Notes under the pieces: model-generated
Database searches by the model: none
The model's input: the letters and a program-made list of their open reading frames with translations, nothing else
What the model was told of the DNA's origin: nothing
DNA from: Patescibacteria group bacterium
GTDB lineage: Bacteria; Patescibacteriota; Saccharimonadia; UBA4664
Reading direction: 5' to 3'
Length of the DNA stretch: 64,000 bases
Assembly (NCBI GenBank): GCA_028288925.1
Contig: JAQGHG010000026.1
Coordinates: 22,013-86,012 of the forward strand
Shown here: positions 1-28,560 of the stretch, piece after piece
Layout of the letters: the number at the start of each line of letters is the position of its first letter
Numbering within the stretch: the stretch's first letter is position 1
Position numbers and translations under genes: made by a program

Positions 1-661
1 GCGTCTCGTGACTATCAATCAGGTGCTCGAGGCCAGTACAAAGCCTGTGATCGTGGATGGCGACAGTGGTGGCCATGACCAGCACTTTGCCCAGATGGTT
101 CGAACTTTGGAACGGCTCGGTGTATCCGCCGTTGTTATCGAAGACAAAGCCGGGCTCAAGCGAAATTCACTACACGAGGACACCCACGCGCATATCCAGG
201 AGACAAAGGAGGCGTTTAGCCGAAAGATTAGAGCGGGTATAAAGGCCAGGCGAACCGACAACTTTATGGTGATCGCGCGTATTGAAAGCCTCATTGTTGG
301 TAGCGGACACGATGACGCTATCGAGCGCGCGAAGGCCTACCTGGGGGCCGGGGCAAGCGCGATCATGATCCATTCCAAAGACGCGACCGGAGCAGATGTG
401 AAGCGCTTTTCCAAAGTATATAATACGCTCCCGAATCGTCGTCCGCTTATGATGGTGCCGACTTCCTATAACGCCGTCTCTGAGGCTGAGCTCACATCCT
501 GGGGCGCCAATATTGTCGTCTATGCCAACCATCTACTCCGCGCGGCCTATCCAGCCATGGAGCAAGCGGCGCAAAAGATATTACAGCACGGCCGCGCGCT
601 TGAGGCCGAGCAGCTATGCTTGCCAATTCCAGACTTCCTAAAGCTTATTACGGACGAGTAA
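1..661 (+). CDS. pepM: Phosphoenolpyruvate phosphomutase (PEP mutase), 5'-truncated by window edge
   Basis: Reading frame is open from nt 2 to the window edge, so the gene continues upstream. Motif VVIEDKAGLKRNSLHED matches the PEP-mutase EDK-x-FPK-x-NSL active-site loop. VIVDGDSGG Mg/oxyanion motif. Immediately followed by ppd. Confidence 0.8.
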   Translation, partial: RLVTINQVLEASTKPVIVDGDSGGHDQHFAQMVRTLERLGVSAVVIEDKAGLKRNSLHEDTHAHIQETKEAFSRKIRAGIKARRTDNFMVIARIESLIVGSGHDDAIERAKAYLGAGASAIMIHSKDATGADVKRFSKVYNTLPNRRPLMMVPTSYNAVSEAELTSWGANIVVYANHLLRAAYPAMEQAAQKILQHGRALEAEQLCLPIPDFLKLITDE

Positions 662-664
662 AGT

Positions 665-1816
665 ATGGCCCAATCATTGGCCGGCAAGCTATCACCCAAG
701 GAACTTTATGAAAGCCTATTGGGCGCCGGCGTAACATTCTTTACCGGCGTGCCCGATTCGCTGCTGAGTAGCTTCGGTTTTTATCTCCAGGATCATGCCG
801 GCAGGCATATTATCGCCGCAAACGAGGGTAATGCCGTCGGGCTAGCCATTGGGCACTATGCTGCCACGACCGAGCTGCCGCTCGTGTATATGCAAAATTC
901 AGGCTTAACCAACGCCATGAATCCGCTCGTCTCGCTAGCCGGCCCCTCAGTTATGAGTATTCCGATGATTCTCATGATTGGTTGGCGTGGTGAGCCCGGT
1001 ACCAGGGACGAGCCGCAGCATACTAAGCTGGGTAGTATAACGACGGCCCTGCTAGACGACCTGGACATACCATACGTCATCCTAGCCGGCAGCGCGTCCA
1101 AAGCCATTGAGCAAATTGAATCGATGGTACGAACTGCGAGAGATGGTCAACGAGCGGTCGCAATTCTCGTCCGGGCCGGAACACTGGCTAGCTATGCGCC
1201 GCGTTCGCATCCCAAAAATAGCTATGAGCTGGCCCGTGAAGCCGCCATTACAACGGTACTTGACCAGTTAACGCCGTACGATATTGTGATCTCAACCACC
1301 GGAAAGGCCAGCCGTGAGGTTGCCGAATATATACGAAGTGATGGTGAGCCAGGCCCCCCAAGCTTGCTTGTCGTGGGGGCTATGGGTCACGCGTCGAGCA
1401 TTGCACTCGCCGTTGCTCTGGATCGCGCGTCCCAGCGAGTAATCTGCCTAGATGGTGATGGTGCGGCCATCATGCATCTAGGCGCCCTCACAACCATTGG
1501 CACAAGTGAGGCGAACAATCTGTGCCACATCGTACTAAACAACGGTTCGCATGAGTCTGTTGGCGGGCAGCCCACTGCTGGCTTCGCTGTTAATCTTGTA
1601 GAAATCGCGCGAGCTTGCGGCTATGCTAAAAGCATAAGCGTAGAGAACGGCGAGCAGCTTACTCAAGCCATAAAATCCACCCAAGATGTCGCATGCCCAA
1701 CATTCATCGAAGTTCGGATAGCACAAGGCTCGCGCTCAGATCTTGGCCGCCCAACTGAGTCCCCCGCCGAGAACAAACAACGGTTTATGAATAATCTAAA
1801 GGATCAATCGTTATGA
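665..1816 (+). CDS. ppd: Phosphonopyruvate decarboxylase (TPP-dependent)
   Basis: 383 aa. N-terminal GVTFFTGVPDSLL motif typical of Ppd/AepY. TPP-enzyme-like central and C-terminal domains (GDGAAIMHLGAL). 4-nt gap after pepM. Confidence 0.8.
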   Translation: MAQSLAGKLSPKELYESLLGAGVTFFTGVPDSLLSSFGFYLQDHAGRHIIAANEGNAVGLAIGHYAATTELPLVYMQNSGLTNAMNPLVSLAGPSVMSIPMILMIGWRGEPGTRDEPQHTKLGSITTALLDDLDIPYVILAGSASKAIEQIESMVRTARDGQRAVAILVRAGTLASYAPRSHPKNSYELAREAAITTVLDQLTPYDIVISTTGKASREVAEYIRSDGEPGPPSLLVVGAMGHASSIALAVALDRASQRVICLDGDGAAIMHLGALTTIGTSEANNLCHIVLNNGSHESVGGQPTAGFAVNLVEIARACGYAKSISVENGEQLTQAIKSTQDVACPTFIEVRIAQGSRSDLGRPTESPAENKQRFMNNLKDQSL

Positions 1817-2691
1817 AACGTAACAATCAAGCACCACTGGCCGCCCGACTCTGGGAGTATCAGGCTGAGCGGTCGCCGTTTATTCCGATGGTTGCTATGG
1901 CGGCGGTTAGCGCCGGCGTTTTGTACCGATTTTCGCACACGAGCTTCACTCGATATCTGATCTGCGTCGTGATTATCACGCTCTATCTCGTTCAGGTTCG
2001 CACGGCGGATGAAAAGAAAGATCTCGAACACGATAATCACTATTATCCGAAGCGACCAGTCCAGCGCGGCCTCGTGAGTCTAAGTGAGCTTGCCACGATC
2101 GGCCGAGCCGCTATCGCTATCCAACTTGTGCTGTATGCCTCATTCCTCGACCCGCTAATCTTTCTCCTGGGTCTTCTTTCGCAAGGGTATGCCTATCTCA
2201 CCCGCCGTGAGTTCTATGTTCGTGATTGGATAAAGCCTCATTTTTTTATTTATTACTTTGCGCATTACGTGCAGCTGGTCATCCTGTTTTTCGTTATGAC
2301 TGACATCATTCATCCAACAAGCCGCACAGCCGGCCAACTACTACTCTTTGTGATGCTCAACATTGCTGTAACTGAGCTTGGCCGAAAGAATCTACCAAAA
2401 GATCAGGATGTAGCTGGAGACACGTACTCATCGCACCTTGGGTATCGAGGCACAGCCATCGCGGCTAGTCTCGCCGCGCTGCTAAACGTAGCTTATACCG
2501 CGCATCTAATGGCCCAAAACACAGGGCCTATCGGCTGGATCGCACTGCCACTCATTACAACGATTGCGGTACTAGCCTGTGCGTATCGCTACGCCGTAAA
2601 ACCGGTAAAGGCTAATCAGACAGGGCTTGCGAATGCTGTTATGGTAAATTATGTAGCAGCAATGCTTGGACTTATTGTAGGCGCACGGTAA
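1813..2691 (+). CDS. Polytopic integral membrane protein (about 8 TM), function unknown
   Basis: 292 aa, highly hydrophobic. Start overlaps ppd stop (ATGA). No recognisable catalytic motif. Confidence 0.45.
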   Translation: MKRNNQAPLAARLWEYQAERSPFIPMVAMAAVSAGVLYRFSHTSFTRYLICVVIITLYLVQVRTADEKKDLEHDNHYYPKRPVQRGLVSLSELATIGRAAIAIQLVLYASFLDPLIFLLGLLSQGYAYLTRREFYVRDWIKPHFFIYYFAHYVQLVILFFVMTDIIHPTSRTAGQLLLFVMLNIAVTELGRKNLPKDQDVAGDTYSSHLGYRGTAIAASLAALLNVAYTAHLMAQNTGPIGWIALPLITTIAVLACAYRYAVKPVKANQTGLANAVMVNYVAAMLGLIVGAR

Positions 2692-5027
2692 TGGCCAAAA
2701 CCACACAAGGAACAAAAGCCGACAATCTTTCGCGCCTCGCGGCAGCCGGGTTTAACGTCCCAAAGTTCTATGTGGTGCCACCAACAGCTACGGCGCGGAC
2801 TGCCGGCGCCGCATTTGTAGACTGGAGCCACACACACGGAGTAAAATCCGTGGCTATTCGCTCATCGGGCACGATTGAGGATGGTAAAGACCAATCATTC
2901 GCGGGGCAATTCACGACACTACTTGGCGTAAGCGGCGCCGACCAATTTACTACCGGAATAGACAAAGTATTGTCGTCGCGAGCACACGCTGCCTATTCAA
3001 AAGCTCGGGGTAGTGTCTACGCCATTGTTCAGGAGTATATTGAGCCAGATATCGCCGGGGTGATATTTAGTGTCAACCCAGCCAATGGCAACCAGGAGTT
3101 TGTCATCAATGTTGCGGCAGGCGTGGGTACGGCGGTGGTAGAAGGCAGAGAAGCGCAGCAATACTTTGTTGACCGCCTTGATTGGTCAGATGTTACCAAG
3201 GTGACCCATGGCGAAAGAGAATTACTAGCACAAGCGCAGATCAAGCAACTGTGCCAGATCGCGACGCAAGCAGAAGTACTCTTTGGCACGCTCCAGGACA
3301 TCGAGTGGGCGATCAAAGACGATACCGTGTATGTGCTACAGAGCCGGCCGGTTACAAGCGTGAACCATCTAAGACTCTGGGACAGTTCCAATATATCCGA
3401 AAGTTTTCCTGGTGTCGTGCTGCCTCTGACGTTCTCGATCGCCAAGCGTGGTTATCAGCTTGCTTATAAAGCGCAGGCCTATGCCGCCGGCCTATCCTGG
3501 TACGAGCTGGAGGCAGATCATCGAACGTTTGACGGTATGATTGGTATTTTCAACGGCCGCATGTACTACAATTTGCTTCACTGGTACCGGTTTATCGCGC
3601 TTTTTCCCGGTAGTAGCAATAACCAAAAGTACCTGGACGACCAGATTGCCACGCAAGGTGAGGGCATACGCCAAGCTGCTACCGCTCGAAGTCTAAGGTT
3701 TCGTCTAAAATTCTACCTTCGTATCCTGTACAGAGCGGTTTTCTTCAGGTATGAACTGCGGCGGTTCTACCGGCGCTTCCAGCAGTTCGAAGACGACATG
3801 AGGGCATTGCCAGGTGTCGGCGACTCCCAAGTGTTGTTGCGCCGGTACACTCACATTGAGCAAACTATTGTCCCGCACTTTGGCCGTACGGTCGACAATG
3901 ACTTCTTTGTCATGATTTACCACGGATGGCTCAAGCGGCTACTAAGTGAAGTGATACCCGATAACACCAGTATCATCGGTTCGCTCAACGGTGTCGTGAG
4001 CGCCGAGCAGGCGACATCGTTGTACGATTTGGCTGAGCAACTCAGAGCCGACCAGCCGGCGCGCAAGCTATTAGTAGCCGGCGATTATGCCGCCCTCGAT
4101 AAACACCTCGCTGGCGGTCCGTTGGAGGCCGCCATTACGCGTTACATCGAAACTTTTGGGCATCGTTTCGCCGGCGACCAAAAGATTGAGGTGGAGAATC
4201 CAACGCTTCAGGAGCATGGCGTCTACAAGCTTATGCGCGCGTATGTGCAGCTGAGTAACTCCGAACTCACGAGCCGAATGACCGAAAGCCGTGCCAAATC
4301 CAGCCAGGTCGAACTCAAGATTAAGACGCGGCTAGGACCACTTCGGCGCCTAATGTATGTTGCTTTGCTCAGCCGCCTCAAACATCACCTCAGGCTACGC
4401 GAAAAAAACCGCTTGCTGCGGGGTAAGGCCTACAACTATATGCGGGAGTTATTTCCGAAGCTTGGGCGTGCTTTGGCCGACGAAGGAGTATTGGAAGCCG
4501 GCAACGATATCTTTTACCTGCAGATCGAAGAAATTTATGACCTCGTGCAGGGCTCACTGATAACCAATGACCTCGCCAAGCGTATCAAACGACGTACAGA
4601 AGCTTACCGCGGCTTCGCTGATATGGATATGCCTGAACGTTTTATTACCACCAGTTTGTCATCGCTCGAGAAAATAACTGTGACGAAGAATGCCCGCCCG
4701 CCCGTCTCGGGAGCGGCCCTAACTGGCCTCATTTCGTCACCCGGCACCATTGAGGGCCGTGTTGTGGTGCTTCGTGATCCGGTGATACCGGATGAGCCCT
4801 ACGATATCCTGGTGGCGGAGCATACCGATCCTGGCTGGACGCCACTCATCGCTCTGGCTAAGGGTGTCATAGTAGAGCATGGCGGTATGCTTTCCCACGC
4901 TGCCATTATTACGCGTGAGCTGGGTATTCCAAGCATCATTGGCGTCGCCGGTGCCACTCGGGAGCTTAAAACCGGTATGATTGTCCGGATTAATACCCAG
5001 AAATCCAGCGTTGAGATCCTAGGCTAG
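2691..5027 (+). CDS. PEP-synthase-like / rifampin-phosphotransferase-like dikinase (PPDK_N ATP-grasp + PEP-utilising mobile His domain, no TIM-barrel)
   Basis: 778 aa. N-terminal pyruvate-phosphate-dikinase-type ATP-binding region (AIRSSGTIEDG...). C-terminal phospho-His swivel motif GGMLSHAAIITRELGIPSIIGV. Stop of previous gene overlaps the start (TAATG). Confidence 0.7.
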   Translation: MAKTTQGTKADNLSRLAAAGFNVPKFYVVPPTATARTAGAAFVDWSHTHGVKSVAIRSSGTIEDGKDQSFAGQFTTLLGVSGADQFTTGIDKVLSSRAHAAYSKARGSVYAIVQEYIEPDIAGVIFSVNPANGNQEFVINVAAGVGTAVVEGREAQQYFVDRLDWSDVTKVTHGERELLAQAQIKQLCQIATQAEVLFGTLQDIEWAIKDDTVYVLQSRPVTSVNHLRLWDSSNISESFPGVVLPLTFSIAKRGYQLAYKAQAYAAGLSWYELEADHRTFDGMIGIFNGRMYYNLLHWYRFIALFPGSSNNQKYLDDQIATQGEGIRQAATARSLRFRLKFYLRILYRAVFFRYELRRFYRRFQQFEDDMRALPGVGDSQVLLRRYTHIEQTIVPHFGRTVDNDFFVMIYHGWLKRLLSEVIPDNTSIIGSLNGVVSAEQATSLYDLAEQLRADQPARKLLVAGDYAALDKHLAGGPLEAAITRYIETFGHRFAGDQKIEVENPTLQEHGVYKLMRAYVQLSNSELTSRMTESRAKSSQVELKIKTRLGPLRRLMYVALLSRLKHHLRLREKNRLLRGKAYNYMRELFPKLGRALADEGVLEAGNDIFYLQIEEIYDLVQGSLITNDLAKRIKRRTEAYRGFADMDMPERFITTSLSSLEKITVTKNARPPVSGAALTGLISSPGTIEGRVVVLRDPVIPDEPYDILVAEHTDPGWTPLIALAKGVIVEHGGMLSHAAIITRELGIPSIIGVAGATRELKTGMIVRINTQKSSVEILG

Positions 5028-6067
5028 CCAATCAGCTTCGACAAGGTGACGTAGCGACGAGTGGTGCGCACTCCTAGTCGACGCATTCGATAAATACTAT
5101 TACCCACCCGAACCGTCGAGAAGACCGCTATCTTGAGTCCGTCTTTCTTGGCTTGTTGATGGACACGGTGAATGAGTAGTCCAGAGACTCGCTTGCCCCG
5201 ATACTCCGGCAGCACACCAATTGTCTTGATGACAAGCTGATCGTCGTGCGGAAAAGCAACAATAAATCCAACTGGCCGGCCATCGTCTTCCAGAAAGTAG
5301 CTGTAATCTGAGTTGAAGATTGGCTCCAGACCACCAAGATTATACCGTCGCTCCTCCCAGCTAAGAACCGGGCAGTAGATACTTTGAGACGGAAAGATAG
5401 CATTCATAAGTTCGTGATAATGACGCAATTCGTCAAGCTTGGCAGAAGCATCAAAATGACGCACCTTCAAACTGGCGAGCGGCACCCGCGGCGTTCGGAC
5501 AAACAACCGGATAAACAGCCCGAAATATCGCGTTTGCCCCGAGACATAATGATTAAAGTCTCTATAGCCCGCCGCCCGAAAGACATCCAAGTACCAGGCG
5601 GGGTTAACTGGTTCGCCCGGAATCTTGTAGTCGCTAGCATCGTTCAGCCGGTAGTCGTAGGTAATAGTGCCATTGATGGGGCCGTAAACTCGTGTCACAC
5701 CCGGCTGTGTGGCCAGCCAATGCTCGGCCAGTTTAAGCACGGCAACACCCGCGTCTAGTGTAGTGGCACCAAAGAAGCCAATGATCCCTAGGTCAGGCAG
5801 CCGCTCATCGGTAAACGCGATCACATGAGCCGTGCCGTCCGCCGATTCTATACTGAAGGCTTTGGCTACCAGATGTTCCCAGAGCGGGTTATTTGGATGC
5901 AATTGCTTATCCCAAACAGCTTGAGCCACCGACCGAATCTCCTCACCGTAGGCAACATTCGTAATTGCCGTGAGTTGCCGAAGGCTAGTGGCGAGAAAAG
6001 GAAGTTTAGCCACGGATGAGGTACAACCAAAGGAATATGACCGCGTAAACAGCCTCAAGCTGGGCAA
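5024..6067 (-). CDS. Hypothetical protein with C-terminal GNAT-like acyl-CoA N-acyltransferase fold
   Basis: 347 aa. C-terminal segment RGKRVSGLLIHRVHQQAKKDGLKIAVF resembles the GNAT acetyl-CoA-binding motif. N-terminal 200 aa unassigned. Confidence 0.35.
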   Translation of the reverse strand: MPSLRLFTRSYSFGCTSSVAKLPFLATSLRQLTAITNVAYGEEIRSVAQAVWDKQLHPNNPLWEHLVAKAFSIESADGTAHVIAFTDERLPDLGIIGFFGATTLDAGVAVLKLAEHWLATQPGVTRVYGPINGTITYDYRLNDASDYKIPGEPVNPAWYLDVFRAAGYRDFNHYVSGQTRYFGLFIRLFVRTPRVPLASLKVRHFDASAKLDELRHYHELMNAIFPSQSIYCPVLSWEERRYNLGGLEPIFNSDYSYFLEDDGRPVGFIVAFPHDDQLVIKTIGVLPEYRGKRVSGLLIHRVHQQAKKDGLKIAVFSTVRVGNSIYRMRRLGVRTTRRYVTLSKLIG

Positions 6068-6716
6068 AGATCGGGTGAGGCTTAAGGATCCGTATTGAAG
6101 ACACCATGAATGGGATCATCGCGGCCAGATATACAGCGGCCAGCCACCGATAGTGGGGGACAAATGCTAGCAGTAATCCATATTTACTAAACAGGACTGG
6201 TAGACCAGTGTAGTACAGCCCATCGGTTTTAACGTAGCCTCGAATAGTAAAACGGCCAAGCCGAATAACGCAGAAGACACAGTAAAAAGTCGTGATAACG
6301 AGCGACCACCAGTGCCAATTGAGCTGAATATTAATCACCAAAGCCGGAAACAACACCCAGCCAAGGACGTCATAGAGCGAGTCGAAAACTGCCCCGTAGG
6401 GCGACCCGCCATATTTCCTGGCCACCGCCCCATCGACATAATCAAGAAACATTGAAGCAAAGGCTAGAACCATGGCCAGGTACAATTGGCCATGGTAGGC
6501 TAACCAAAAGGCGCTCGTAATGAAAGCCACGGCAGTCAAAGTGACGTAGTCGGCCACGGAGAGTTCCGCCAAAACACCACCAGACCACAATTTTGCTCGA
6601 CCAAGCTTGTGCATATCGGTCATGATACCAGGATAACCAGTCTTCCAACAGTCTGCGCCTCGTCTAAACATAGTATGGTAGGCTACGATAATATGTTTGA
6701 CACGAACACCCAACAC
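6006..6716 (-). CDS. CDP-alcohol phosphatidyltransferase family membrane enzyme
   Basis: Motif DYVDGAVARKYGGSPYGAVFDSLYDVLGW fits D-G-x2-A-R-x8-G-x3-D-x3-D. Multi-TM. Confidence 0.75.
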   Translation of the reverse strand: MLGVRVKHIIVAYHTMFRRGADCWKTGYPGIMTDMHKLGRAKLWSGGVLAELSVADYVTLTAVAFITSAFWLAYHGQLYLAMVLAFASMFLDYVDGAVARKYGGSPYGAVFDSLYDVLGWVLFPALVINIQLNWHWWSLVITTFYCVFCVIRLGRFTIRGYVKTDGLYYTGLPVLFSKYGLLLAFVPHYRWLAAVYLAAMIPFMVSSIRILKPHPIFAQLEAVYAVIFLWLYLIRG

Positions 6717-6718
6717 AA

Positions 6719-7696
6719 ATGCTGAGAGCTAGTCTAAAATTTGCCCGGCCGCGCATTATTATCACATGTTTTGCAATTGCTACGCTGGGCAGCGCCGCAG
6801 CGGGGCGGGTCACACCGGCCGTATTGTGGTGTTTCTTGCTCATCATCGCATTTATCATCCACGCTAATTCCATCAATGATTACACCGATCTCGAGATCGA
6901 CCGGGTGAACTTAAAAAACGCCAAGGACCGCCCCTTAGTAACTGGCGACATAACGATCCCGCAATTCTGGCTTGTTCACGGTCTAAGCGGAGGGGCAATG
7001 TTACTGTTGTCGGTTCCGTTTGGCTGGCGCGGGGTAGCAGCTTCGGCTGTTGTTGTGGTCATCGATTATTTGTATTCTCTACGGCCCATACGTGTCGCCG
7101 ACCGGCCATATGCTACGCCGCTGGCACTCGCGGGCACGTACGTATACTACTCATTCTCACTTGGGCTATGGTCGGCCCACACCCATGCTGCCTACCCTTG
7201 GATGCTATCCGTCGCGCTTTTCCTCGCGTTCTTGGCGAGACTTCTCCTTAAAGATTTTCGAGACAAAAAAGGTGACAAGCGTTACGGTAAGGAGACGTTC
7301 CTGCTGCGTCACGGTTCTACGACGACCTGCGTAGTCAGCGGTCTGTTATGGGTCTGCGCGGTCGGAAGCACTTTTCTAGCCCGCGCGCCCTGGCCAACCA
7401 TCGTGGTTCTTATTGTTGGTACAGTCATGGTTGGCCTTTGGCTCAAGCGATTATCTGGCCTAGCGGATGTCCAAGATCAACAACGGATGGTAACTGCCAT
7501 AGCCAACGCCGCCAATATCGCCATCGTCGCGCTCCTCGTGGGCTATGTGTGTCGCGATATAGGGGCATCACAGCTTGCGTCAAGCGTCAGTGTGCTTGTG
7601 ATTGGAGCAGGGGCACTCGGATACAATTGGTTTCGCACTAGACACATTACTCAAGCCAGGCGGCCGGTTGATCATAGCCGGGTGCCCTCTACGTGA
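6719..7696 (+). CDS. UbiA-family prenyltransferase (membrane)
   Basis: NSINDYTDLEIDRVN (NDxxDxxxD Asp-rich motif), a second Asp/Lys-rich loop KDFRDKKGDKRYG, about 8 TM helices. Confidence 0.7.
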   Translation: MLRASLKFARPRIIITCFAIATLGSAAAGRVTPAVLWCFLLIIAFIIHANSINDYTDLEIDRVNLKNAKDRPLVTGDITIPQFWLVHGLSGGAMLLLSVPFGWRGVAASAVVVVIDYLYSLRPIRVADRPYATPLALAGTYVYYSFSLGLWSAHTHAAYPWMLSVALFLAFLARLLLKDFRDKKGDKRYGKETFLLRHGSTTTCVVSGLLWVCAVGSTFLARAPWPTIVVLIVGTVMVGLWLKRLSGLADVQDQQRMVTAIANAANIAIVALLVGYVCRDIGASQLASSVSVLVIGAGALGYNWFRTRHITQARRPVDHSRVPST

Positions 7697-7851
7697 TAAT
7701 CCACCTCCCACACCCGCGGAGTACGATAAAATGAAGCCGTTTATGGTATGCGAACACACCTATGCAAAAGGGTTCTCATTGACCTAAGCGGAGCGAGTGG
7801 CTATGGTTATATAAAGCTAATGCTTACTTTTAGAGAGGGTAGTCGTAGTCA

Positions 7852-8499
7852 ATGAGTAGTTTTATGTCATCCGTGGTAGTTCCTCTGTATTTTATCCATA
7901 TTACGATCGCGTTCATCATCTTGGCCTGGTGGTTCACACGCAAGAAAGCACAAGCACTTAAATACTTTGGCTGGGGGCTCACTGGCTACGCGCTAGGCAT
8001 TGGCGCCTGGACGCTCGTTGTGCTCACGAAACCAGCCAGCCTAGAACCACCTATTCTCATCGGCGTCGTGCCGTTCCTGCTCGCCCACGTCGCGTTTGCT
8101 AAGGCGACAATGCTCAGGACGAAGTCTAAACTTGTCCTACCGCTTACAGTGTTGCTACTCGCCGCTACGTTTATTGCTCGTACGTTCTACTTCCAATCAA
8201 AGCCATACTTTTCCGATCAGGGCTACTTCTTTTTCGGGCTGATGGCGGTACCACTTGCATTTTATATCGCGACAATCGCCGTAAGCTTCCTTTCGGCTAG
8301 CATCACCGCCATGGGTGACATCAAGAGCACGACGGTCCGCAGAATTATGACATCGGGGCTCATAGGCGTCTTCATTAACATGGTTATTCAAATATCCGTA
8401 CAAGATGAGAGTCTGCGGATCATCAACGCTGTTGTTGCTACCGTCACCCTCTTCGGGCTCTGGGTAACCGCGGTCACCCACCAAAGCGAGAAAATCTAA
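7852..8499 (+). CDS. Integral membrane protein, unknown function
   Basis: 215 aa, 6-7 predicted TM segments, no motif. Confidence 0.45.
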   Translation: MSSFMSSVVVPLYFIHITIAFIILAWWFTRKKAQALKYFGWGLTGYALGIGAWTLVVLTKPASLEPPILIGVVPFLLAHVAFAKATMLRTKSKLVLPLTVLLLAATFIARTFYFQSKPYFSDQGYFFFGLMAVPLAFYIATIAVSFLSASITAMGDIKSTTVRRIMTSGLIGVFINMVIQISVQDESLRIINAVVATVTLFGLWVTAVTHQSEKI

Positions 8500-8506
8500 C
8501 CCCCGC

Positions 8507-9190
8507 CTAAACCTGAAGTCGTTGCGTTGCTTGGATATCATTTGAGGCAAGAGAAAACACACGTGACATCAGCTCGTCCGGCGTAGCCGCTTGCGTGCAA
8601 ACAAACGGTTCGCCAATGGTGAGACGACAGCTGAATCGACTCTGCCAAGCCAAGTGCATGGGCAGTAGGTGCACCCCCGGCTCTACGGCCAAGGCCGCGA
8701 TGCCAGGTCTGGCGACAAGCTCAGGGGAGCGGCCGCCCTGCGGAAAGATGACAATCGTTTGGCCCGCTATTAATAGCCGTTTCGAGTGCTCGAGACCGTA
8801 AGGCAAACTAATGTGCTTTTGAGCTGGGAATCCACCACATAGCCGGAGTAGTATGCGGAGCCAAGCGTTATCAAAGTATCGGTTCAGGACAAGAAACCGG
8901 TAGGGAATGAGCTGAAAAATTGACCTCGCGGGCAACGACACTACCATAAGGAGCGGATCCAACATACTGCGATGATTGGCGTAGATTACGTTAGGTTCTA
9001 AAGTAGCATGTATGTTGGCCGGCCGACGAAGCCCACCGCGCAGAATCAAAAGGCGCATGACCCACAGGCCGGGGTAAAGGCTGAGTTGAGTTACGAGAAT
9101 TGCCCACCGCCAAGCGGAGTGTTCATTGCGTGACGAGTTAGCTGTGTCATGTATGGTGCTAGGCAACATGCATCTAGTATCGCATACCAA
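8507..9190 (-). CDS. Lysophospholipid (1-acyl-glycerol-3-phosphate) acyltransferase, PlsC family
   Basis: HxxxxD motif (ANHRSMLDP) and FPQGGRS motif of glycerolipid acyltransferases. Confidence 0.7.
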   Translation of the reverse strand: MVCDTRCMLPSTIHDTANSSRNEHSAWRWAILVTQLSLYPGLWVMRLLILRGGLRRPANIHATLEPNVIYANHRSMLDPLLMVVSLPARSIFQLIPYRFLVLNRYFDNAWLRILLRLCGGFPAQKHISLPYGLEHSKRLLIAGQTIVIFPQGGRSPELVARPGIAALAVEPGVHLLPMHLAWQSRFSCRLTIGEPFVCTQAATPDELMSRVFSLASNDIQATQRLQV

Positions 9191-9823: not shown

Positions 9824-10459
9824 ATGGCAAAAAATATACTTATCATTGTCTCGGGTCTGCCCGCGACCGGCAAAACAACCCTTAGCCAGGGAATGGCAAA
9901 GCATTTGCACCTCCCGCTCGTCAGCAAAGATACCATCAAAGAAATTCTCTTCGATGGCGTAGGCCACGGCGATCGCGAGTGGGGTGAGAAACTAAACATT
10001 CCAACCTATAACCTTTTAAATTACTTTGTCGAACAAGAACTACGGGCTGGGCGCCCACTCATTATTGAAACCCCGTATGATGATGACTTCCCCCGTCGAG
10101 CCTACGAAAAATGGCAATCTGAATACGGTTTTGAGTGTGTTCAAGTTATGTGCTATGCCGAACCCAAAGTACTCATTGAGCGGTTCGTCGCCCGTATCGG
10201 AGCGCCGGAGCGTCACCCAGGCCACAACGATCAGGCCGCCCTGGAGGACTTCAAGAGGAGCATTAAAGACGCGGAGAAAGTGAAGCCGCTATCCTTGCAG
10301 GGTGAAGTCTACGAGCTTAACACCACTGATTTCTCCAAAATCGATACCGAATCTCTGCTCAAAAAGCTAGAAGCGGCCATGGTTGCCCCAATCCGAGACC
10401 AACCCACCCGGCTAAATCTCCGACTTTTGGCTGGGCTATGGTTCCGTCAGAAACAATAA
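9824..10459 (+). CDS. P-loop NTPase / small-molecule kinase-like (AAA_33-like)
   Basis: Walker A GLPATGKTT at the N-terminus. About 210 aa, zeta-toxin/chloramphenicol-phosphotransferase-like size. Confidence 0.5.
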   Translation: MAKNILIIVSGLPATGKTTLSQGMAKHLHLPLVSKDTIKEILFDGVGHGDREWGEKLNIPTYNLLNYFVEQELRAGRPLIIETPYDDDFPRRAYEKWQSEYGFECVQVMCYAEPKVLIERFVARIGAPERHPGHNDQAALEDFKRSIKDAEKVKPLSLQGEVYELNTTDFSKIDTESLLKKLEAAMVAPIRDQPTRLNLRLLAGLWFRQKQ

Positions 10460-11061
10460 TGCTTGCTGAGACGACAGTATTTAGTGAAGTCAGTGCGCTC
10501 TATCTAGCAGATTCAGCCCAAGGTATGGGCAAATGGATGTGGCACAACCATGTCCAGTGGGTCGCCGGCCGGGCGAAGAAGTTGGCCGAAAAGTACGGAG
10601 CCGACGCCGAAAAAGTCTATTGCGCGGCATTGCTACACGATCTGGCAGACTGCGAATACGAGAGGGGCCACCCGGATTTTGATACATGGTCCTGGGAAAA
10701 GGGCAAAGAGATCTTGAAAAAGGCTGGATGTAAGCGAGATGAACGCAAGGAAATCCTGGAAGCCGTCCGCACCCATTCCTGCCATCCGGGCCATCTCCCT
10801 ACGGCGCTCGAAGGAAAAGTGCTCGCCACCGCCGATGCGATGTGGCACCTACAGACCAGCTTTTTCCCGATGATTTGCTATAAGCGGCGGCCAAAAGATA
10901 CTCATACGTACGAAGAGTGGCAGGAATGGTTCAACGAAAAGATCGAGAGGGACTTCGGCCCGAAGATCTTCTTCGAAGACGAAAGGGCTGAGGTGAAGGA
11001 AGATTACGAAGCTCTTTTGCGCGTGTTTCGGAATAAAACATTAAACAGCAAGGAGGGCTAG
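10438..11061 (+). CDS. HD-domain phosphohydrolase
   Basis: HD motif ALLHDLAD plus downstream His residues. Likely real start at second Met (10459). Confidence 0.6.
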   Translation: MVPSETIMLAETTVFSEVSALYLADSAQGMGKWMWHNHVQWVAGRAKKLAEKYGADAEKVYCAALLHDLADCEYERGHPDFDTWSWEKGKEILKKAGCKRDERKEILEAVRTHSCHPGHLPTALEGKVLATADAMWHLQTSFFPMICYKRRPKDTHTYEEWQEWFNEKIERDFGPKIFFEDERAEVKEDYEALLRVFRNKTLNSKEG

Positions 11062-20845: not shown

Positions 20846-21583
20846 TTAAGGCCGCTCAAAGCGGCGAAAACCCTCGGTCAGCACTACTTGGCCACTCTTG
20901 TGAACCATCATGGCCTCGCATCCTTGGCTATGTAAAAACGCCAGGCCTGGCCGCCCCATACAAAACGCCGCTGTAGCCAGCGCGTCGACACGGTCGATCG
21001 TCGCGCCAACTACCGTCAGGCTCACCGGGTCGCCGACCATCCGGCCGGTGCGGGGATTATAAATATGCTCGCCCCGCTCGGCGGTCCCCGAAGTAGCCAC
21101 CGCGGCGTTCTTGAGATAGAGCAGCTTGGCCAGCTTACCCGGCTCGAACGGATTCGCGACCCCAATCGCCCAAGGGCCTCCGTCGGGGCCGTCACCGCTC
21201 ATCTGCATATCGCCGCCCGCGTTGATGCAGTAGCGCGTGATATACCGGCGGTCGAGCAGCCGTGCCGCCTGGTAGACCGCCCAGCCCTTCACGTATCCTG
21301 AAGGGTCGGTGTGGCCGTCCCATACCATATCGAAGCAACCATCCGTCAGCTTCTTTAAGCTCTCGCATTCATCCAAAACCTCCCGGACCTCTTCGCGGAC
21401 CTGGGATCGTTTGAGCTCGCCCCGGTTGAAACGGCTTATTTCGCTGTTCGGCTTGTAAGTGCTAAAGACCGCATCAACGTGGTGAAAATACGCGAAAACC
21501 TCATCAATAGCCTCGTCCAAAGCATTGGCGCCAAATGCCTCAACGGTGATTGGCATACCCATAATAATCCGCGTAGCTTTCAT
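20846..21583 (-). CDS. apbE: FAD:protein FMN transferase (ApbE family), copy 1
   Basis: N-terminal MKATRIIMGMPITVEA, ApbE-like core (DPSGYVKGWA, ATSGTAERG). ORF-track start at 21637 is probably too long. Confidence 0.75.
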   Translation of the reverse strand: MKATRIIMGMPITVEAFGANALDEAIDEVFAYFHHVDAVFSTYKPNSEISRFNRGELKRSQVREEVREVLDECESLKKLTDGCFDMVWDGHTDPSGYVKGWAVYQAARLLDRRYITRYCINAGGDMQMSGDGPDGGPWAIGVANPFEPGKLAKLLYLKNAAVATSGTAERGEHIYNPRTGRMVGDPVSLTVVGATIDRVDALATAAFCMGRPGLAFLHSQGCEAMMVHKSGQVVLTEGFRRFERP

Positions 21584-21607
21584 AACCCTATATTGTACAA
21601 TAATCAT

Positions 21608-23182
21608 ATGCAAGAAACGCCCCTGGAAGTAGCACAAAGGCTCCTCGCGGAAGGAAGAACCACCGATGAGATTAGAGTCGCACTCGGCGGCTCTGCCCCA
21701 ATCGCACCTCCGGCGCCAGAAACAGCTGCTCCGCCACCTCCTCCACCGGCCTCGGTTTCGTCGTCCCCGGCCATGTCCGCGCCAGCTCCTACTCCTGCTA
21801 CGCCACTGCCTCCTCCTCCTCCCGTGCCCGTGGCCTACCCTCAGCTTTTGAGCGCCAGGAGGCCAATACTGGCGATTCCGAAGCTTGGGTGGCCACTTAT
21901 TGCCATTATCTGCCTCATCCCATCCCTCGTTCTGTGCGTCGATGTGCCAATAGCCAACCGGTTTGGCGATATTCCGAGCGCGCTCTTGACCTTCGGAGAC
22001 ATCACAGGCGTAATCGGGCTGGCTACGTATGTCCTAAATCTCGTACTGGCGACCCGCCTACGCTGGCTGGAAGACTTGTTCGGTGGCCTCAACCGGGTGT
22101 TCGTAGCCCACCAGATCCTTGGAGGGTTGTCGCTCGTTACGCTGCTCATCCACCCCATGTTCTCGGCGGCTTCATACTACCCTTACGGCATCCGGGTGAT
22201 GTCGCATTTCTTCATTCCTCAGGTCGCCTATATAGGAACGGCCTTCGGCATAGTGGCGCTCACTATGATCATAGTGCTGCTCGTGCTTAGCTTCTACGTT
22301 AAGATCGGGTATAAGGTTTGGCTGCAAACGCACAAATACCTTGGTCTGGCCTACCTTCTGATAGGTTTGCATATACTTCTCACGCCCAACCGTATCACCG
22401 CCGACCCTTTCATAACCGGGTATCTCTGGGTCCTATTTCTAGCTGGCTTGGTCTCGTTTATATACCGGACACTACTGCCCAACATCTTCGTACGGAGCTA
22501 CCTGTACACCATTTCTTTGGCCGAGCGAAAAGGCGTTGGGGCGGTTGAAGTTACGCTAATTCCCGTCGACAAAATGATCCGCTTCAAAGCTGGCCAATTC
22601 ATCTTTATTGCCTTTGGCAGCGACGGCATATCGAGCGAATGGCATCCTTTCAGTATCTCTTCGGCCGAAACTTCTGGAAGGCTCATGATTGATGTGAAGT
22701 CGATGGGCGGATACACGGAGACTCTCACGCGTCTGCTTCCTCACATGATTGGTATGACAGCTCGCGTGGAGGGGGCTTATGGAAGGTTCTCGTATCGCAA
22801 CTTCGGCAACCTTAACCAGGTCTGGATAGCCGGCGGGATCGGAATCACGCCATTCTTGAGCATGGCTCAGACTCTCGGCACCGGGCCGTATAATGTCGAT
22901 CTCTACTATTCGGTAAAAACCAAGAGCGAGCTGATCGACCTCGATACGCTGGCGGTGCACCAATCGAACAACCCGGGACAGGTCTTCCGCGTGTTTCCCT
23001 TCGTGACGGACGCCTACAATACGTTCCTAAATGCTGAGATCATCGCGAGCAATAGCGGAGACCTCACTAAGCGCGATTTCCTCTTGTGCGGCCCACCGCC
23101 CATGATGCAATCAATAAAGAAACAGCTCATGACGATGGGTGTTAAAGCGAGTCAGATTCACACCGAAGAATTCTCACTCTAA
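21608..23182 (+). CDS. Ferric-reductase/NOX-type membrane flavocytochrome (FRD TM domain + FAD-binding + NAD(P)H-binding), Pro-rich N-terminus
   Basis: TM His pairs (AHQILGG, LIHPMF, THKYLG, GLHILL), HPFS FAD motif, GGIGITPF NAD(P)H motif. ORF-track start at 21479 would overlap ApbE. Met at 21608 preferred. Confidence 0.7.
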   Translation: MQETPLEVAQRLLAEGRTTDEIRVALGGSAPIAPPAPETAAPPPPPPASVSSSPAMSAPAPTPATPLPPPPPVPVAYPQLLSARRPILAIPKLGWPLIAIICLIPSLVLCVDVPIANRFGDIPSALLTFGDITGVIGLATYVLNLVLATRLRWLEDLFGGLNRVFVAHQILGGLSLVTLLIHPMFSAASYYPYGIRVMSHFFIPQVAYIGTAFGIVALTMIIVLLVLSFYVKIGYKVWLQTHKYLGLAYLLIGLHILLTPNRITADPFITGYLWVLFLAGLVSFIYRTLLPNIFVRSYLYTISLAERKGVGAVEVTLIPVDKMIRFKAGQFIFIAFGSDGISSEWHPFSISSAETSGRLMIDVKSMGGYTETLTRLLPHMIGMTARVEGAYGRFSYRNFGNLNQVWIAGGIGITPFLSMAQTLGTGPYNVDLYYSVKTKSELIDLDTLAVHQSNNPGQVFRVFPFVTDAYNTFLNAEIIASNSGDLTKRDFLLCGPPPMMQSIKKQLMTMGVKASQIHTEEFSL

Positions 23183-28110: not shown

Positions 28111-28560
28111 ATGAAAAAGTTAATCTTGGCGGCCTTTGTAGTCGCGACATTCATTATCTACAGCGTCCACCAACACCAGGACGGCTCCGCGGCCGTGGTG
28201 GCGCCGGCGCGTACAAGTACCACTCCGACGCCTGCTTCATCGCCCGCCCCGGGGTCCACGCCTGCGGCGGCCATCGCCTATAAAGACGGCCGGTACACGG
28301 GAGACGCGGCGGATGCCGTATACGGCAATATCCAGGTGGCGGCTACCATCCAAAATGGCAAAATTACCGACGTGGAGTTTCTGCAGTATCCCAACGACCG
28401 CAATACGTCGGTGCGTATCAACACCCAGGCCATGCCGTATCTCAAGCAAGAAGCGATTTCAGTGCAAAGCGGCCACGTCGATATCGTCTCAGGCGCCACC
28501 GATTCGAGCCAGGCTTTCATCCAGTCGCTGAGCTCCGCCCTAGCCAAAGCGCAGTCGTAG
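28111..28560 (+). CDS. FMN-binding-domain (FMN_bind) extracytoplasmic protein, predicted ApbE substrate
   Basis: Signal/anchor MKKLILAAFVVATFIIYSV. Flavinylation motif DIVSGATDS (Thr at nt 28498-28500). Confidence 0.75.
   Translation: MKKLILAAFVVATFIIYSVHQHQDGSAAVVAPARTSTTPTPASSPAPGSTPAAAIAYKDGRYTGDAADAVYGNIQVAATIQNGKITDVEFLQYPNDRNTSVRINTQAMPYLKQEAISVQSGHVDIVSGATDSSQAFIQSLSSALAKAQS

Follow-up and report, generated by a model that had tools for sequence, protein, structure and literature searches.

The closest described counterparts of the locus considered here are the 'Group 1' or 'Burkholderiales_CDP-OH' phosphonolipid clusters, which are predicted and chemically uncharacterised in the summary of Yu et al. 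2013 given by PMC8942020, and the clusters of Nostoc, also of predicted phosphonolipid type, which follow a logic of CMP-phosphonate plus CDP-alcohol phosphotransferase (PMC5987646). The Patescibacteria genome that carries the locus is tiny; the window analysed is a 64,000-nucleotide stretch of it. ORF and profile analysis finds nine genes at positions 1-9190, at the coordinates assigned in an earlier note on this DNA (Table 1). Judged from sequence, the odds are somewhat better than even that the cluster is a self-contained module for a predicted phosphonate-headed membrane lipid, and it is best read as a variant of the same predicted, chemically uncharacterised kind. The evidence supports treating PepM-Ppd and the lipid genes as one conserved unit.

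Table 1. Features at positions 1-9190 of the window, with the match or observation that identifies each (family cut-offs in brackets).
Feature	Position	Strand	Evidence
PEP mutase (PepM), C-terminal 219 aa	2..661	+	PF13714, E 3e-39; 5'-truncated, gene leaves window at left edge
Phosphonopyruvate decarboxylase (Ppd)	665..1816	+	TIGR03297, 448.5 bits (312.5 bits); TPP_enzyme_N, TPP_enzyme_C
UbiA-like 1, divergent UbiA-superfamily membrane protein, 292 aa	1813..2691	+	NF010118, E 2.5e-12
Rph/PigC-type dikinase	2691..5027	+	PPDK_N and PEP-utilizers only
Tandem-GNAT acyltransferase, 329 aa	5024..6013	-	NCBI-annotated P0241, 100% identical, 329 aa
CDP-alcohol phosphotransferase (CDP-OH_P_transf)	6006..6620	-	PF01066, 52.2 bits (22 bits)
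UbiA prenyltransferase (UbiA2), DGGGP-synthase / chlorophyll-synthase type	6719..7696	+	PF01040, 94.3 bits (34.2 bits)
SAM methyltransferase relic	7647..7745	+	tblastn with L025 methyltransferase, 18/33 identical, E 3e-9
YhhN-like polytopic membrane protein	7852..8499	+	Orthologues in 6 related loci
PlsC-type acyltransferase	8507..9190	-	PF01553, 48.6 bits (23 bits)

The leading four genes (PepM, Ppd, UbiA-like 1 and the dikinase) are translationally coupled. Only 3 nt separate the PepM TAA from the Ppd ATG, which bears out the coupling already remarked on for this pair at the left edge; Ppd and the UbiA-like gene overlap in ATGA, and the UbiA-like and dikinase genes in TAATG. The match of the truncated PepM to TIGR02320 (270.8 bits) spans profile positions 66-282 out of 284. 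Its catalytic loop, which the earlier note had singled out for checking, has the Ppm-specific motif EDKxxxxxNS in the form EDKAGLKRNS, and Ppd has the GVPDSLL motif ascribed to it. By strong homology, the PepM domain would convert PEP to phosphonopyruvate and Ppd would decarboxylate this to phosphonoacetaldehyde.

That no cytidylyltransferase accompanies the pair holds for the sequence as far as it extends, but the activating enzyme seems missing because the window edge probably cuts off an N-terminal domain. In an alignment with a cytidylyltransferase-PepM orthologue of 437 aa (L024, 67% identity), the window sequence begins at residue 219, and ~218 residues, including a Fom1-type cytidylyltransferase domain, probably lie beyond the left edge. 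Full-length relatives of this PepM are all cytidylyltransferase-PepM fusions of 431-447 aa (one is longer); the N-terminal PF01467 domain is present in 14 of the 14 full-length PepMs from loci in other phyla and in every one of the close clade. This argues against the earlier suggestion that an unusual replacement enzyme forms the CMP-phosphonate. The rest of the proposal, a self-contained route to a phosphonate lipid, gains from the conserved linkage, the coupling and the CMP-phosphonate/CDP-alcohol logic. The stand-alone cytidylyltransferase of one relative (L020) matches the 2-hydroxyethylphosphonate (HEP) cytidylyltransferase domain of Fom1 (PDB 5x3d) with 202 bits (E 2e-59, ~70% identical), as against 72 bits for ethanolamine-phosphate cytidylyltransferase and 39 bits for TagD, and its type nests among the PepM-fused domains. 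By these matches the cytidylyltransferase of the module is Fom1-like, of the type that acts on HEP, and as the PepM N-terminus just off the window it would form CMP-phosphonate.

Its substrate would be supplied by an enzyme encoded outside the cluster, through reduction of phosphonoacetaldehyde to HEP or, less probably, transamination to 2-aminoethylphosphonate (AEP). No enzyme for this step was found in the window or in the flanks covered for all relatives, up to 10 kb on each side. Homologues of the Fe-ADH and class-V aminotransferase of related phosphonate clusters are absent from the window ORFs of >=60 aa throughout the 64 kb, and Pfam scans of the larger ORFs found neither family, in agreement with the earlier observation that the pair has no AEP transaminase or Fe-ADH-type reductase nearby. 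Among the closest PepM-Ppd pairs of other phyla, a PhpC/FomC-type Fe-ADH follows in 10 of 16 loci.

The co-conservation of gene order that had been proposed as a check is found: the same set is present in at least eight distinct metagenomic loci, in two orders. The order of the window recurs in L017/18, L019, L021, L023, L024, L028 and L029; L025/26 has the nine-gene set in a different order. Three loci, two of them distinct (L020, L022 and L027), have the module without PepM-Ppd and with a stand-alone Fom1-type cytidylyltransferase, which sits in the position that L025 gives to Ppd and the fused cytidylyltransferase-PepM. Retention of this enzyme in the same slot implies that activating the phosphonate is a function of the lipid module; having lost PepM-Ppd, these relatives would need scavenged phosphonate. 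In remoter relatives, the trio of UbiA-like, dikinase and GNAT genes adjoins a BtaA-like DUF3419 gene that replaces the cytidylyltransferase and the CDP-alcohol transferase. BtaA attaches its head group to the diacylglycerol hydroxyl, and the replacement therefore favours a lipid alcohol as acceptor. Linkage of cytidylyltransferase-PepM, Ppd and a CDP-alcohol transferase is also found, as an independent case, in Puteibacter (Bacteroidota; L004); specific kinship of the module's CDP-alcohol transferase with that PepM-linked one was not found.

The CDP-alcohol phosphotransferase, whose probable start is Met33 of an ORF open to 6716 (orthologues have 191-203 aa), keeps the DYVDGAVARKYGGSPYGAVFDSLYD motif in common with all its orthologues. 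It would pass the phosphonyl group from CMP to the free hydroxyl of a diacylglycerol-like lipid with release of CMP, as in the Kennedy pathway. Its best PDB match is the PssA of M. jannaschii (7b1k, 49 bits), and its subfamily matches (TIGR00473, 65 bits; TIGR04217, 47 bits) all fall far below cut-offs. Catalytic motifs are conserved across orthologues of this transferase, of both UbiA proteins and of PlsC, as is the dikinase histidine.

The first UbiA-like protein had been described as a polytopic membrane protein, which it is, but not an anonymous one: NF010118 and an hhalign comparison with UbiA2 (E 0.003, both Asp-rich motifs in register) place it as a divergent member of the UbiA superfamily. 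Pfam UbiA matches are found on its orthologues, and the motifs ADExKDxEHDN and DxYSxxLG are conserved. UbiA2 has NDYxDxxID and KDFRDxKGDxxxGKxT, with DGGGP synthase 6m31 as best PDB match (E 1e-5); the methyltransferase that survives beside it as a relic is intact in L020, L022, L025 and related loci. PF07947 (YhhN) matches three of seven orthologues of the YhhN-like protein (best E 3.6e-8) and does not match the window protein itself. The PlsC-type acyltransferase probably starts near 9169, and its NHRSMLD (HxxxxD) and FPxGxR blocks are conserved among orthologues. The two prenyltransferases, PlsC and the YhhN-like protein may together build or remodel the lipid acceptor.

The dikinase gene always lies directly downstream of UbiA-like 1. 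Its product, previously called PEP-synthase-like, is a dikinase by its PPDK_N and PEP-utilizers domains, but it has the Rph architecture of ATP-grasp, middle and phosphohistidine swivel domains and lacks the PEP/pyruvate-binding domain. PF27448 (Rph_4th) is recorded for the identical NCBI protein (P0001), the PDB entries that match best (5fbs/5hv1, 258 bits) are of the rifampin phosphotransferase of Listeria, and His736 of the GGxLSHAAI motif is invariant across orthologues. The AF2 model of the GNAT protein (pLDDT 90.4) finds its best Foldseek matches in tandem GNATs (3tt2, 7q3a, 5kf1 GlmA and 1ozp MshD; TM 0.5-0.6); FemX/MprF structures reach TM 0.33-0.39. The trio also occurs in lineages without phosphonate genes, and its role is therefore not phosphonate-specific. 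What we assign to it is a guess: the dikinase would phosphorylate a lipid or prenol hydroxyl for its coupled UbiA-like enzyme, and the GNAT protein would add an acyl group.

Several points count against a phosphonolipid product: the enzyme acting on phosphonoacetaldehyde was not found in the sequence covered, the trio is shared with lineages that have no phosphonate genes, and the CDP-alcohol transferase has no specific kinship with that of L004. In addition, to our knowledge no known phosphonolipid route includes UbiA enzymes, and the nearest relatives of the CDP-alcohol transferase, weakly, are of PssA type, in which the donor is a CDP-lipid and the acceptor is soluble. A polyprenyl-phosphate phosphoribosyltransferase is among the members of the UbiA superfamily, and the phosphonate might instead decorate a cell-surface glycan or wall polymer through polyprenyl-linked intermediates, with the UbiA proteins acting on polyprenyl phosphate, like DPPR synthase, and the CDP-alcohol transferase serving a sugar or polyol hydroxyl. 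Polyprenyl synthase genes do lie inside the modules of L020 and L024, phosphonoglycans or phosphonolipids are the presumed products of about half of pepM clusters, and the known HEP conjugates are exopolysaccharides (PMC8942020). However, the conserved module has no glycosyltransferase, LicD-type transferase, flippase or polymerase; PlsC, the YhhN-like protein, lipid-type (CMAS) methyltransferases in several relatives and the alternation with a BtaA-like gene all indicate glycerolipids, and UbiA2 most resembles the O-prenylating DGGGP and chlorophyll synthases. This makes a glycan product unlikely, if the least so of the alternatives. The kinship with PssA and archaetidylserine synthases, the closest characterised relatives, would also fit a transfer of reversed polarity, in which a CDP-lipid (CDP-diacylglycerol or CDP-archaeol-like) reacts with the free hydroxyl available on HEP to give a phosphatidyl-HEP with free terminal phosphonate. 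The cytidylyltransferase would then have another purpose, but a soluble Fom1-type enzyme always accompanies the CDP-alcohol transferase, even without PepM-Ppd, no CDP-lipid synthase of CdsA/CarS type is encoded in the module, and the matches to those subfamilies are the sub-threshold ones noted above. We regard this polarity as the most improbable alternative.

The two halves of the cluster might also share no product, the phosphonate genes making a soluble phosphonate or fosfomycin-like metabolite and the lipid genes serving general membrane remodelling in a lipid-scavenging host, with the Rph-like kinase perhaps a resistance enzyme (antibiotic kinases are among its relatives). The cytidylyltransferase does, after all, have its nearest counterpart in Fom1, an enzyme of fosfomycin synthesis. 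The earlier note had held that its proposal would suffer if PepM-Ppd were conserved elsewhere without the lipid genes and these belonged to ordinary phospholipid synthesis. The pair does stand without them in L001-L016, from other phyla, and they without it in L020, L022 and L027, but they form a specialised module, and the phosphonate-type cytidylyltransferase stays beside them after PepM-Ppd loss. Moreover, linkage survives rearrangement between the two gene orders, and the first four genes follow one another with an overlap or a gap of 3 nt. The neighbourhoods showed no radical-SAM (Fom3-type) enzyme or any other of fosfomycin type, and the association of the dikinase with the UbiA-like and GNAT genes extends well outside phosphonate-carrying lineages. 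Separate products are thus quite unlikely, falling between the other two alternatives.

Several known systems resemble parts of the locus. The dikinase resembles the Rph and PigC-RedH family in its ATP-grasp, substrate and swivel phosphohistidine domains and in its best PDB and NCBIfam matches; it differs in that curated family scores are all far below cut-off and in its fixed place right after a UbiA-like gene, with a tandem GNAT in the same cluster. BtaA-type (DUF3419) betaine-lipid transferases, in the remoter relatives, have a head-group-attaching role beside the same trio, but the window has none of them, and they work with SAM, not with a phosphonate activated by CMP. With Kennedy-type transfer (CDP-ethanolamine/choline:diacylglycerol phosphotransferases) the locus would share the combination of soluble cytidylyltransferase and membrane CDP-alcohol phosphotransferase, and it would operate in the manner of the eukaryotic AEP-lipid route, in which diacylglycerol receives CMP-AEP. 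Here, unlike in the Kennedy-type enzymes, the transferase sequence is nearer the archaeal/bacterial PssA type, and the acceptor lipid may be prenylated. Fom1 (Streptomyces wedmorensis, bifunctional HEP cytidylyltransferase / PEP mutase) has the fusion architecture of all the relatives; in contrast to its pathway, no Fe-ADH, radical-SAM or other fosfomycin-type enzyme was seen, and CMP-phosphonate is probably the donor for a membrane transferase rather than a transient methylation handle. Closest are the Burkholderiales_CDP-OH and Nostoc clusters, in which, as PMC8942020 and PMC5987646 describe them, fused nucleotidyltransferase-PepM, Ppd and CDP-alcohol phosphatidyltransferase are likewise clustered, for a predicted transfer from CMP-phosphonate to a lipid alcohol. 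In the same descriptions those clusters have an AEP transaminase, a 2-oxoglutarate/Fe(II) oxygenase and PntC or 'NTP transferase' nucleotidyltransferases, none of which the Patescibacteria cluster has; it probably has a Fom1-type (PF01467) cytidylyltransferase, in a patescibacterial host, and adds to the described set two UbiA proteins, the Rph-type dikinase, the tandem GNAT, the YhhN-like protein and PlsC.

The nine genes of 1-9190 lie where the earlier note, made from sequence, had placed them, and its description of the sequence is correct. The spacer between the genes of PepM (PEP mutase, also Ppm) and Ppd (phosphonopyruvate decarboxylase) is 3 nt, which bears out the translational coupling claimed for this pair at the left edge. 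Ppd and UbiA-like 1 overlap in ATGA, and UbiA-like 1 and the dikinase in TAATG; all four genes are translationally coupled.

Features of the window considered in the text (coordinates in nucleotides; aa, amino acids)
Feature	Coordinates	Strand	Remarks
PEP mutase (PepM), C-terminal 219 residues	2-661	+	PF13714, E 3e-39; runs off the left edge
Phosphonopyruvate decarboxylase (Ppd)	665-1816	+	TIGR03297, 448.5 bits (cut-off 312.5)
UbiA-like 1, 292-aa membrane protein	1813-2691	+	putative divergent UbiA member
Dikinase, 778 aa	2691-5027	+	ATP-grasp and swivel phosphohistidine domains, without PEP/pyruvate-binding domain
GNAT protein	5024-6013	-	tandem GNAT
CDP-alcohol phosphotransferase	6006-6620	-	PF01066, 52.2 bits (cut-off 22)
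UbiA2 prenyltransferase	6719-7696	+	PF01040, 94.3 bits (cut-off 34.2); both Asp-rich motifs conserved
Methyltransferase relic, 33 residues	7647-7745	+	18/33 identical, E 3e-9; spans the UbiA2 3' end and the following spacer
Membrane protein, 215 aa	7852-8499	+	YhhN-like via orthologues
PlsC-type acyltransferase	8507-9190	-	PF01553, 48.6 bits (cut-off 23); NHRSMLD (HxxxxD)
HD-domain protein	10438-11061
Membrane oxidoreductase-like protein	21479-23182	+
Membrane oxidoreductase-like protein	28560-30071	+
LigD, complete, 801 aa	30624-33029	-	3'-phosphoesterase, ATP-dependent ligase, primase-polymerase
FAD-linked oxidase	41565-43259
F-type ATP synthase alpha, gamma, beta	59732-63564

The earlier note had recognized PepM by its catalytic loop, and the Ppm-specific EDKxxxxxNS motif (as defined in PMC6697681) is indeed found, as EDKAGLKRNS, together with VIEDKAGLKRNSL, DGDSGG, ARIES and MIHSK. 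The match of the fragment to TIGR02320 is 270.8 bits against a curated cut-off of 319.55, with only model positions 66-282 of 284 falling inside the window. A protein search with the fragment returned matches to fragments only, at identities of 67% or less. Ppd matches both the N- and C-terminal TPP domains (PF02776 and PF02775).

The visible sequence contains no cytidylyltransferase, as the earlier note had said, but this absence is probably an effect of the window edge. Among the relatives to which the dikinase led, Ppd is preceded by a gene for a 433-440 aa protein in which a PF01467 cytidylyltransferase is fused to PEP mutase. A phmmer survey over 100 fetched loci finds the N-terminal PF01467 domain on every full-length PepM (orthologues of 431-447 aa), in the close clade as well as in 14 full-length outgroup loci from other phyla. 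On alignment with the 437-aa orthologue in L024, one of the close relatives (67% identity over 216 residues), codon 1 of the window falls at residue 219. Because the window starts at this point of the fusion, ~650 nt including the whole cytidylyltransferase domain probably sit just beyond the edge. (Rice et al., PMC6697681, give 23.6% as the share of Ppm enzymes with such a fusion.)

The nature of the domain is suggested by a stand-alone cytidylyltransferase from a related module. It scores 202 bits (E 2e-59, ~70% identical) against PDB 5x3d, the domain with which the fosfomycin enzyme Fom1 acts as a 2-hydroxyethylphosphonate (HEP) cytidylyltransferase, as compared with 72 bits against ethanolamine-phosphate cytidylyltransferase and 39 bits against TagD. 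The module's cytidylyltransferase domain is thus assigned by similarity to the Fom1 type, and its predicted substrate, from the resemblance to 5x3d and the gene context of outgroup Ppd loci (Fe-ADH), is HEP. The proposal that an unusual enzyme has taken over the activating step finds no support, the PepM of relatives being fused to a Fom1-type domain.

Of the lipid enzymes, UbiA-like 1 itself has no Pfam match, although its orthologues match PF01040. It reaches E 2.5e-12 with NCBIfam prenyltransferase models (far under cut-off) and aligns with UbiA2 in hhalign at E 0.003 with both motifs in register; on these alignments it is best regarded as a divergent UbiA member. The closest relatives of UbiA2 are DGGGP synthase and chlorophyll synthase; it reaches none of the curated equivalogs (best NF009523, 82 bits against 269). 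In the dikinase, whose GGxLSHAAI histidine motif is invariant, Pfam recognizes PPDK_N and the swivel domain and nothing else. Its description as PEP-synthase-like does not hold: TIGR01418 scores 145 bits against a cut-off of 739.75, and the missing PEP/pyruvate-binding domain is the C-terminal one. The best solved relative is Listeria rifampin phosphotransferase (Rph; 258 bits), and the corresponding model NF041857 gives 195.5 bits, short of its cut-off of 999, so the protein can be thought of as Rph-like in architecture and best PDB match, yet outside the Rph equivalog.

The GNAT family is narrow (77 clusters in a 5.8-billion-sequence collection); the GNAT of the window, like the dikinase, has a 100% identical NCBI counterpart (P0241 and P0001, respectively). 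The AF2 model (pLDDT 90.4) resembles the tandem GNATs MshD, glucosamine N-acetyltransferase and MAB_4324 at TM 0.5-0.6; judged by the model, a FemX/MprF-type aminoacyl-tRNA transferase (TM 0.33-0.39) is a far weaker fit than these acyl-CoA tandem GNATs. The DxxDGxxAR...G...D...D motif is kept in all orthologues of the CDP-alcohol transferase, which is nearest, weakly, to PssA-type enzymes and does not reach the PssA or archaetidylserine synthase subfamily cut-offs (TIGR00473, 65.2 against 107 bits; TIGR04217, 47.2 against 200 bits). PF07947 (YhhN) does not match the 215-aa membrane protein and matches three of its seven orthologues (best E 3.6e-8). The PlsC-type protein scores 27.8 bits with the 1-acylglycerol-3-phosphate acyltransferase model TIGR00530, below its cut-off of 102.95. 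Relatives carry an intact SAM methyltransferase between UbiA2 and PlsC; this gene seems to have been deleted in the window's lineage, which retains a 33-residue relic.

Relatives were found by dikinase-anchored scans, and all ORFs of their loci were then compared with the window proteins by phmmer. In the clade with 45-62% identical dikinases, UbiA-like 1, the dikinase, the tandem GNAT, the CDP-alcohol transferase, UbiA2, the YhhN-like protein and PlsC all recur, often with a lipid-type methyltransferase and in two cases with a polyprenyl synthase. In seven distinct loci (L017/18, L019, L021, L023, L024, L028 and L029) the cytidylyltransferase-PepM fusion and Ppd follow the order of the window; in L025/26 the same genes occupy a different place on the opposite strand. 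L020 and L022/L027 share the gene order of L025, with a stand-alone cytidylyltransferase of 140-181 aa replacing its Ppd and fusion. A neighbour-joining tree places this protein within the PepM-fused domains, with which it shares 60-68% identity; searches beside it in L020 and L022 gave no relics of PepM or Ppd. The conserved gene set, its two orders and the stand-alone cytidylyltransferase together imply that phosphonate activation is integral to the lipid module, with PepM-Ppd present or absent.

The cluster looks mosaic when 1-9190 is compared with L017, L019, L021, L024 and L028 on the one hand and L020, L022 and L025 on the other. PepM, Ppd, UbiA-like 1 and the dikinase score highest against L017/L024-type loci, and the GNAT, CDP-alcohol transferase, UbiA2 and PlsC against loci of the L025/L022 type, whose genes are arranged in the other order. 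Phage or mobile-element genes (terminase large subunit, ParB-methyltransferase, serine recombinase, Replic_Relax, TIR) adjoin the module in L017 (2289-5849), L021 (1019-6576 and 18576-19826, on both sides), L024 (420-1994) and L028 (19278-22349). Carriage of the module by phage is unsupported, since no dikinase relative occurs on IMG/VR viral contigs.

What is missing is an enzyme for phosphonoacetaldehyde. A PhpC/FomC-type Fe-ADH directly follows Ppd in 10 of the 16 outgroup loci; a class-V aminotransferase is present in one of them. The ORFs of loci L017-L100 and of the whole 64 kb window include no homologue of either, in agreement with the earlier note, which saw no AEP (2-aminoethylphosphonate) transaminase and no Fe-ADH-type reductase downstream; Pfam scans of the other window and neighbour ORFs revealed no substitute. 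In about 13% of the genomes examined by Li and Horsman (PMC8942020), all seven known branch-point enzymes are lacking, and the window cluster belongs to this class. The step after phosphonoacetaldehyde is a place to seek a new branch-point enzyme.

Several candidates for missing functions were considered and set aside. The genes common to the window and its relatives number nine, up to 9190; the NUDIX, AAA_33, HD and PfkB genes beyond are not conserved with the module. The HD-domain protein, as a PhnZ-like C-P oxygenase, has only generic HD-hydrolase matches, and the FAD-linked oxidase, as an ether-lipid alkyl-DHAP synthase, is nearer to glycolate oxidase and D-lactate dehydrogenase. A 275-aa protein conserved in type-A relatives, considered as the missing reductase, is a polytopic membrane protein that does not occur in the window.

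Elsewhere in the window, a complete three-domain LigD is encoded in what is labelled a Patescibacteria genome. One of the two membrane oxidoreductase-like proteins combines ferric-reductase transmembrane, FAD and NAD domains; the other fuses an NQR2/RnfD-like domain to an NAD-binding domain. G+C is 0.50-0.55 across the lipid cluster and several other stretches and rises to as much as 0.64 at 52001-54000 and 60001-64000 (a helicase gene; the ATP synthase genes). Rfam has no matches in the window.

Loci with remoter dikinases (25-34% identical) often keep the trio of UbiA-like 1, dikinase and tandem GNAT, frequently with PlsC and the YhhN-like protein. In four inspected loci, L043, L050, L101 and L102, a DUF3419 (BtaA-like) gene stands beside the trio, and neither a cytidylyltransferase nor a CDP-alcohol transferase is present. 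BtaA, like the Kennedy-type CDP-alcohol transferases, puts a head group on diacylglycerol at its free hydroxyl. Because the BtaA-like gene alternates with the cytidylyltransferase and CDP-alcohol transferase, the arrangement would favour, by analogy, a lipid alcohol as acceptor and CMP-phosphonate as donor; it also hints that the modules form a wider family, serving lipids whose head groups are not the ordinary phosphate ones.

The DUF3419 clusters (L043, 7057-13262; L050, 9746-17751; L101, 1989-10934; L102, 7017-15943) form a recurrent, unannotated lipid-type assembly of UbiA, Rph-like dikinase, DUF3419 protein and tandem GNAT on metagenomic contigs, some of them Verrucomicrobia-like. Further members vary between loci: an AMP-binding ligase, a fatty-acyl-reductase-like protein, a PlsC-radical-SAM fusion or a DAG-kinase-like protein. 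A literature search found no paper mentioning both DUF3419 and UbiA. Some relatives (L030, 4394-6154; database proteins P0093-P0100) have ~565-aa dikinases that match only PF27448 and PF00391 and lack the ATP-grasp domain at the N-terminus; in L030 a small dikinase-like fragment is encoded separately upstream, which suggests that its dikinase is split or truncated.

A pathway can be sketched from these assignments. PepM would convert PEP to phosphonopyruvate and Ppd would decarboxylate it, both by strong homology; that phosphonoacetaldehyde is formed is very probable. An enzyme encoded outside the cluster would then yield HEP or, less likely, AEP. HEP is favoured because the cytidylyltransferase appears to be of Fom1 type and the nearest PepM-Ppd pairs stand in Fe-ADH context; we hold it as a tentative identification that falls somewhat short of being probable. 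The fused cytidylyltransferase, to judge from relatives, would form the CMP-phosphonate, and the CDP-alcohol transferase would pass the phosphonyl group to a lipid alcohol, with the two UbiA enzymes, PlsC and the YhhN-like protein presumably building or remodelling this acceptor. It is a guess that the dikinase may phosphorylate a lipid or prenol hydroxyl for its coupled UbiA-like enzyme, and that the tandem GNAT may carry out an acylation.

We lean, if only slightly, toward a phosphonate-headed lipid as the product. The UbiA proteins and the polyprenyl synthase of two relatives bring to mind a polyprenyl-linked phosphonoglycan, which is unlikely; PlsC recurs throughout the close clade. The genes might also be adjacent without sharing a product, the phosphonate being, for example, a soluble fosfomycin-like metabolite. 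The 16 Ppd-anchored outgroup loci (38-52% identity, many phyla) do have PepM-Ppd without any lipid genes; domains corresponding to the fosfomycin pathway's Fom3 radical-SAM methyltransferase, Fom4 epoxidase and FomD did not turn up in the cluster or in the neighbourhoods of its relatives, and the stand-alone cytidylyltransferase stays with the lipid genes where PepM-Ppd is lacking. We consider mere adjacency quite improbable. Least probable is a reversed polarity, giving phosphatidyl-HEP: the weak affinity of the CDP-alcohol transferase to PssA-type enzymes speaks for it, and the BtaA-like alternation, pointing to a lipid alcohol acceptor, against it.

The phosphonate-headed lipid can be placed within a larger reading, speculative and rather unlikely, of a compact, possibly mobile Patescibacteria lipid module. 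Its trio core would make an undescribed anchor, and its swappable head-group unit would be a BtaA-like transferase in some lineages and a Fom1-type cytidylyltransferase with a CDP-alcohol transferase in others; the product would be a HEP-headed or other non-AEP phosphonolipid, a new enzyme would act on phosphonoacetaldehyde, and PepM-less relatives would load scavenged phosphonate. To our knowledge, such a non-AEP phosphonolipid is a lipid class never reported, and no link to phosphonates has been made before for enzymes like the module's two UbiA proteins, Rph-type dikinase and tandem GNAT. A phosphonate head group would withstand phosphatases and phospholipases. The general view is that Patescibacteria cannot make membrane lipids of their own, and the module bears on how these ultra-small cells build or remodel membranes.

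The predicted phosphonolipid clusters of Burkholderia (PMC8942020) and Nostoc (PMC5987646) follow the same logic. Group 1 ('Burkholderiales_CDP-OH') likewise has PepM, Ppd and a CDP-alcohol phosphatidyltransferase in one cluster. In contrast, its AEP transaminase has no counterpart here (no class-V aminotransferase in the window or L017-L100), and its 2-oxoglutarate/Fe(II) oxygenase and PntC-type nucleotidyltransferases are absent from the Pfam matches of the window cluster and from relatives' neighbour tables, the nucleotidyltransferase of relatives being a PF01467 domain. The cultured Bacteroidota Puteibacter caeruleilacunae JC036 has a compact cluster (L004, 6308-13400) with cytidylyltransferase-PepM, Ppd, an SDR-type epimerase/reductase, LysE, a 300-aa CDP-alcohol transferase, and a 465-aa protein that has a second cytidylyltransferase domain and, towards its C-terminus, a part weakly resembling aminotransferases. 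This is an independent linkage of cytidylyltransferase-PepM, Ppd and CDP-alcohol transferase, no specific kinship of its transferase with that of the module being detectable, and it could serve as a tractable model for PepM-linked CDP-alcohol transferases.

PepM/CDP-alcohol transferase phosphonolipid clusters are predicted to be common in bacteria, and no large predicted group of them has a characterised product (PMC8942020); the small, tightly coupled module considered here is a compact test case. The literature already predicts the general kind, in which PepM goes together with a nucleotidyltransferase and a CDP-alcohol transferase. For Patescibacteria/CPR, our literature searches yielded no paper dealing with pepM or with this lipid module. 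What is new is the Patescibacteria host, activation of Fom1 rather than PntC type alongside a lipid transferase, a cluster without a known branch-point enzyme, and the setting, a conserved module that unites two UbiA proteins with an Rph-type dikinase and a tandem GNAT and comes in phosphonate, stand-alone-cytidylyltransferase and BtaA-like versions.
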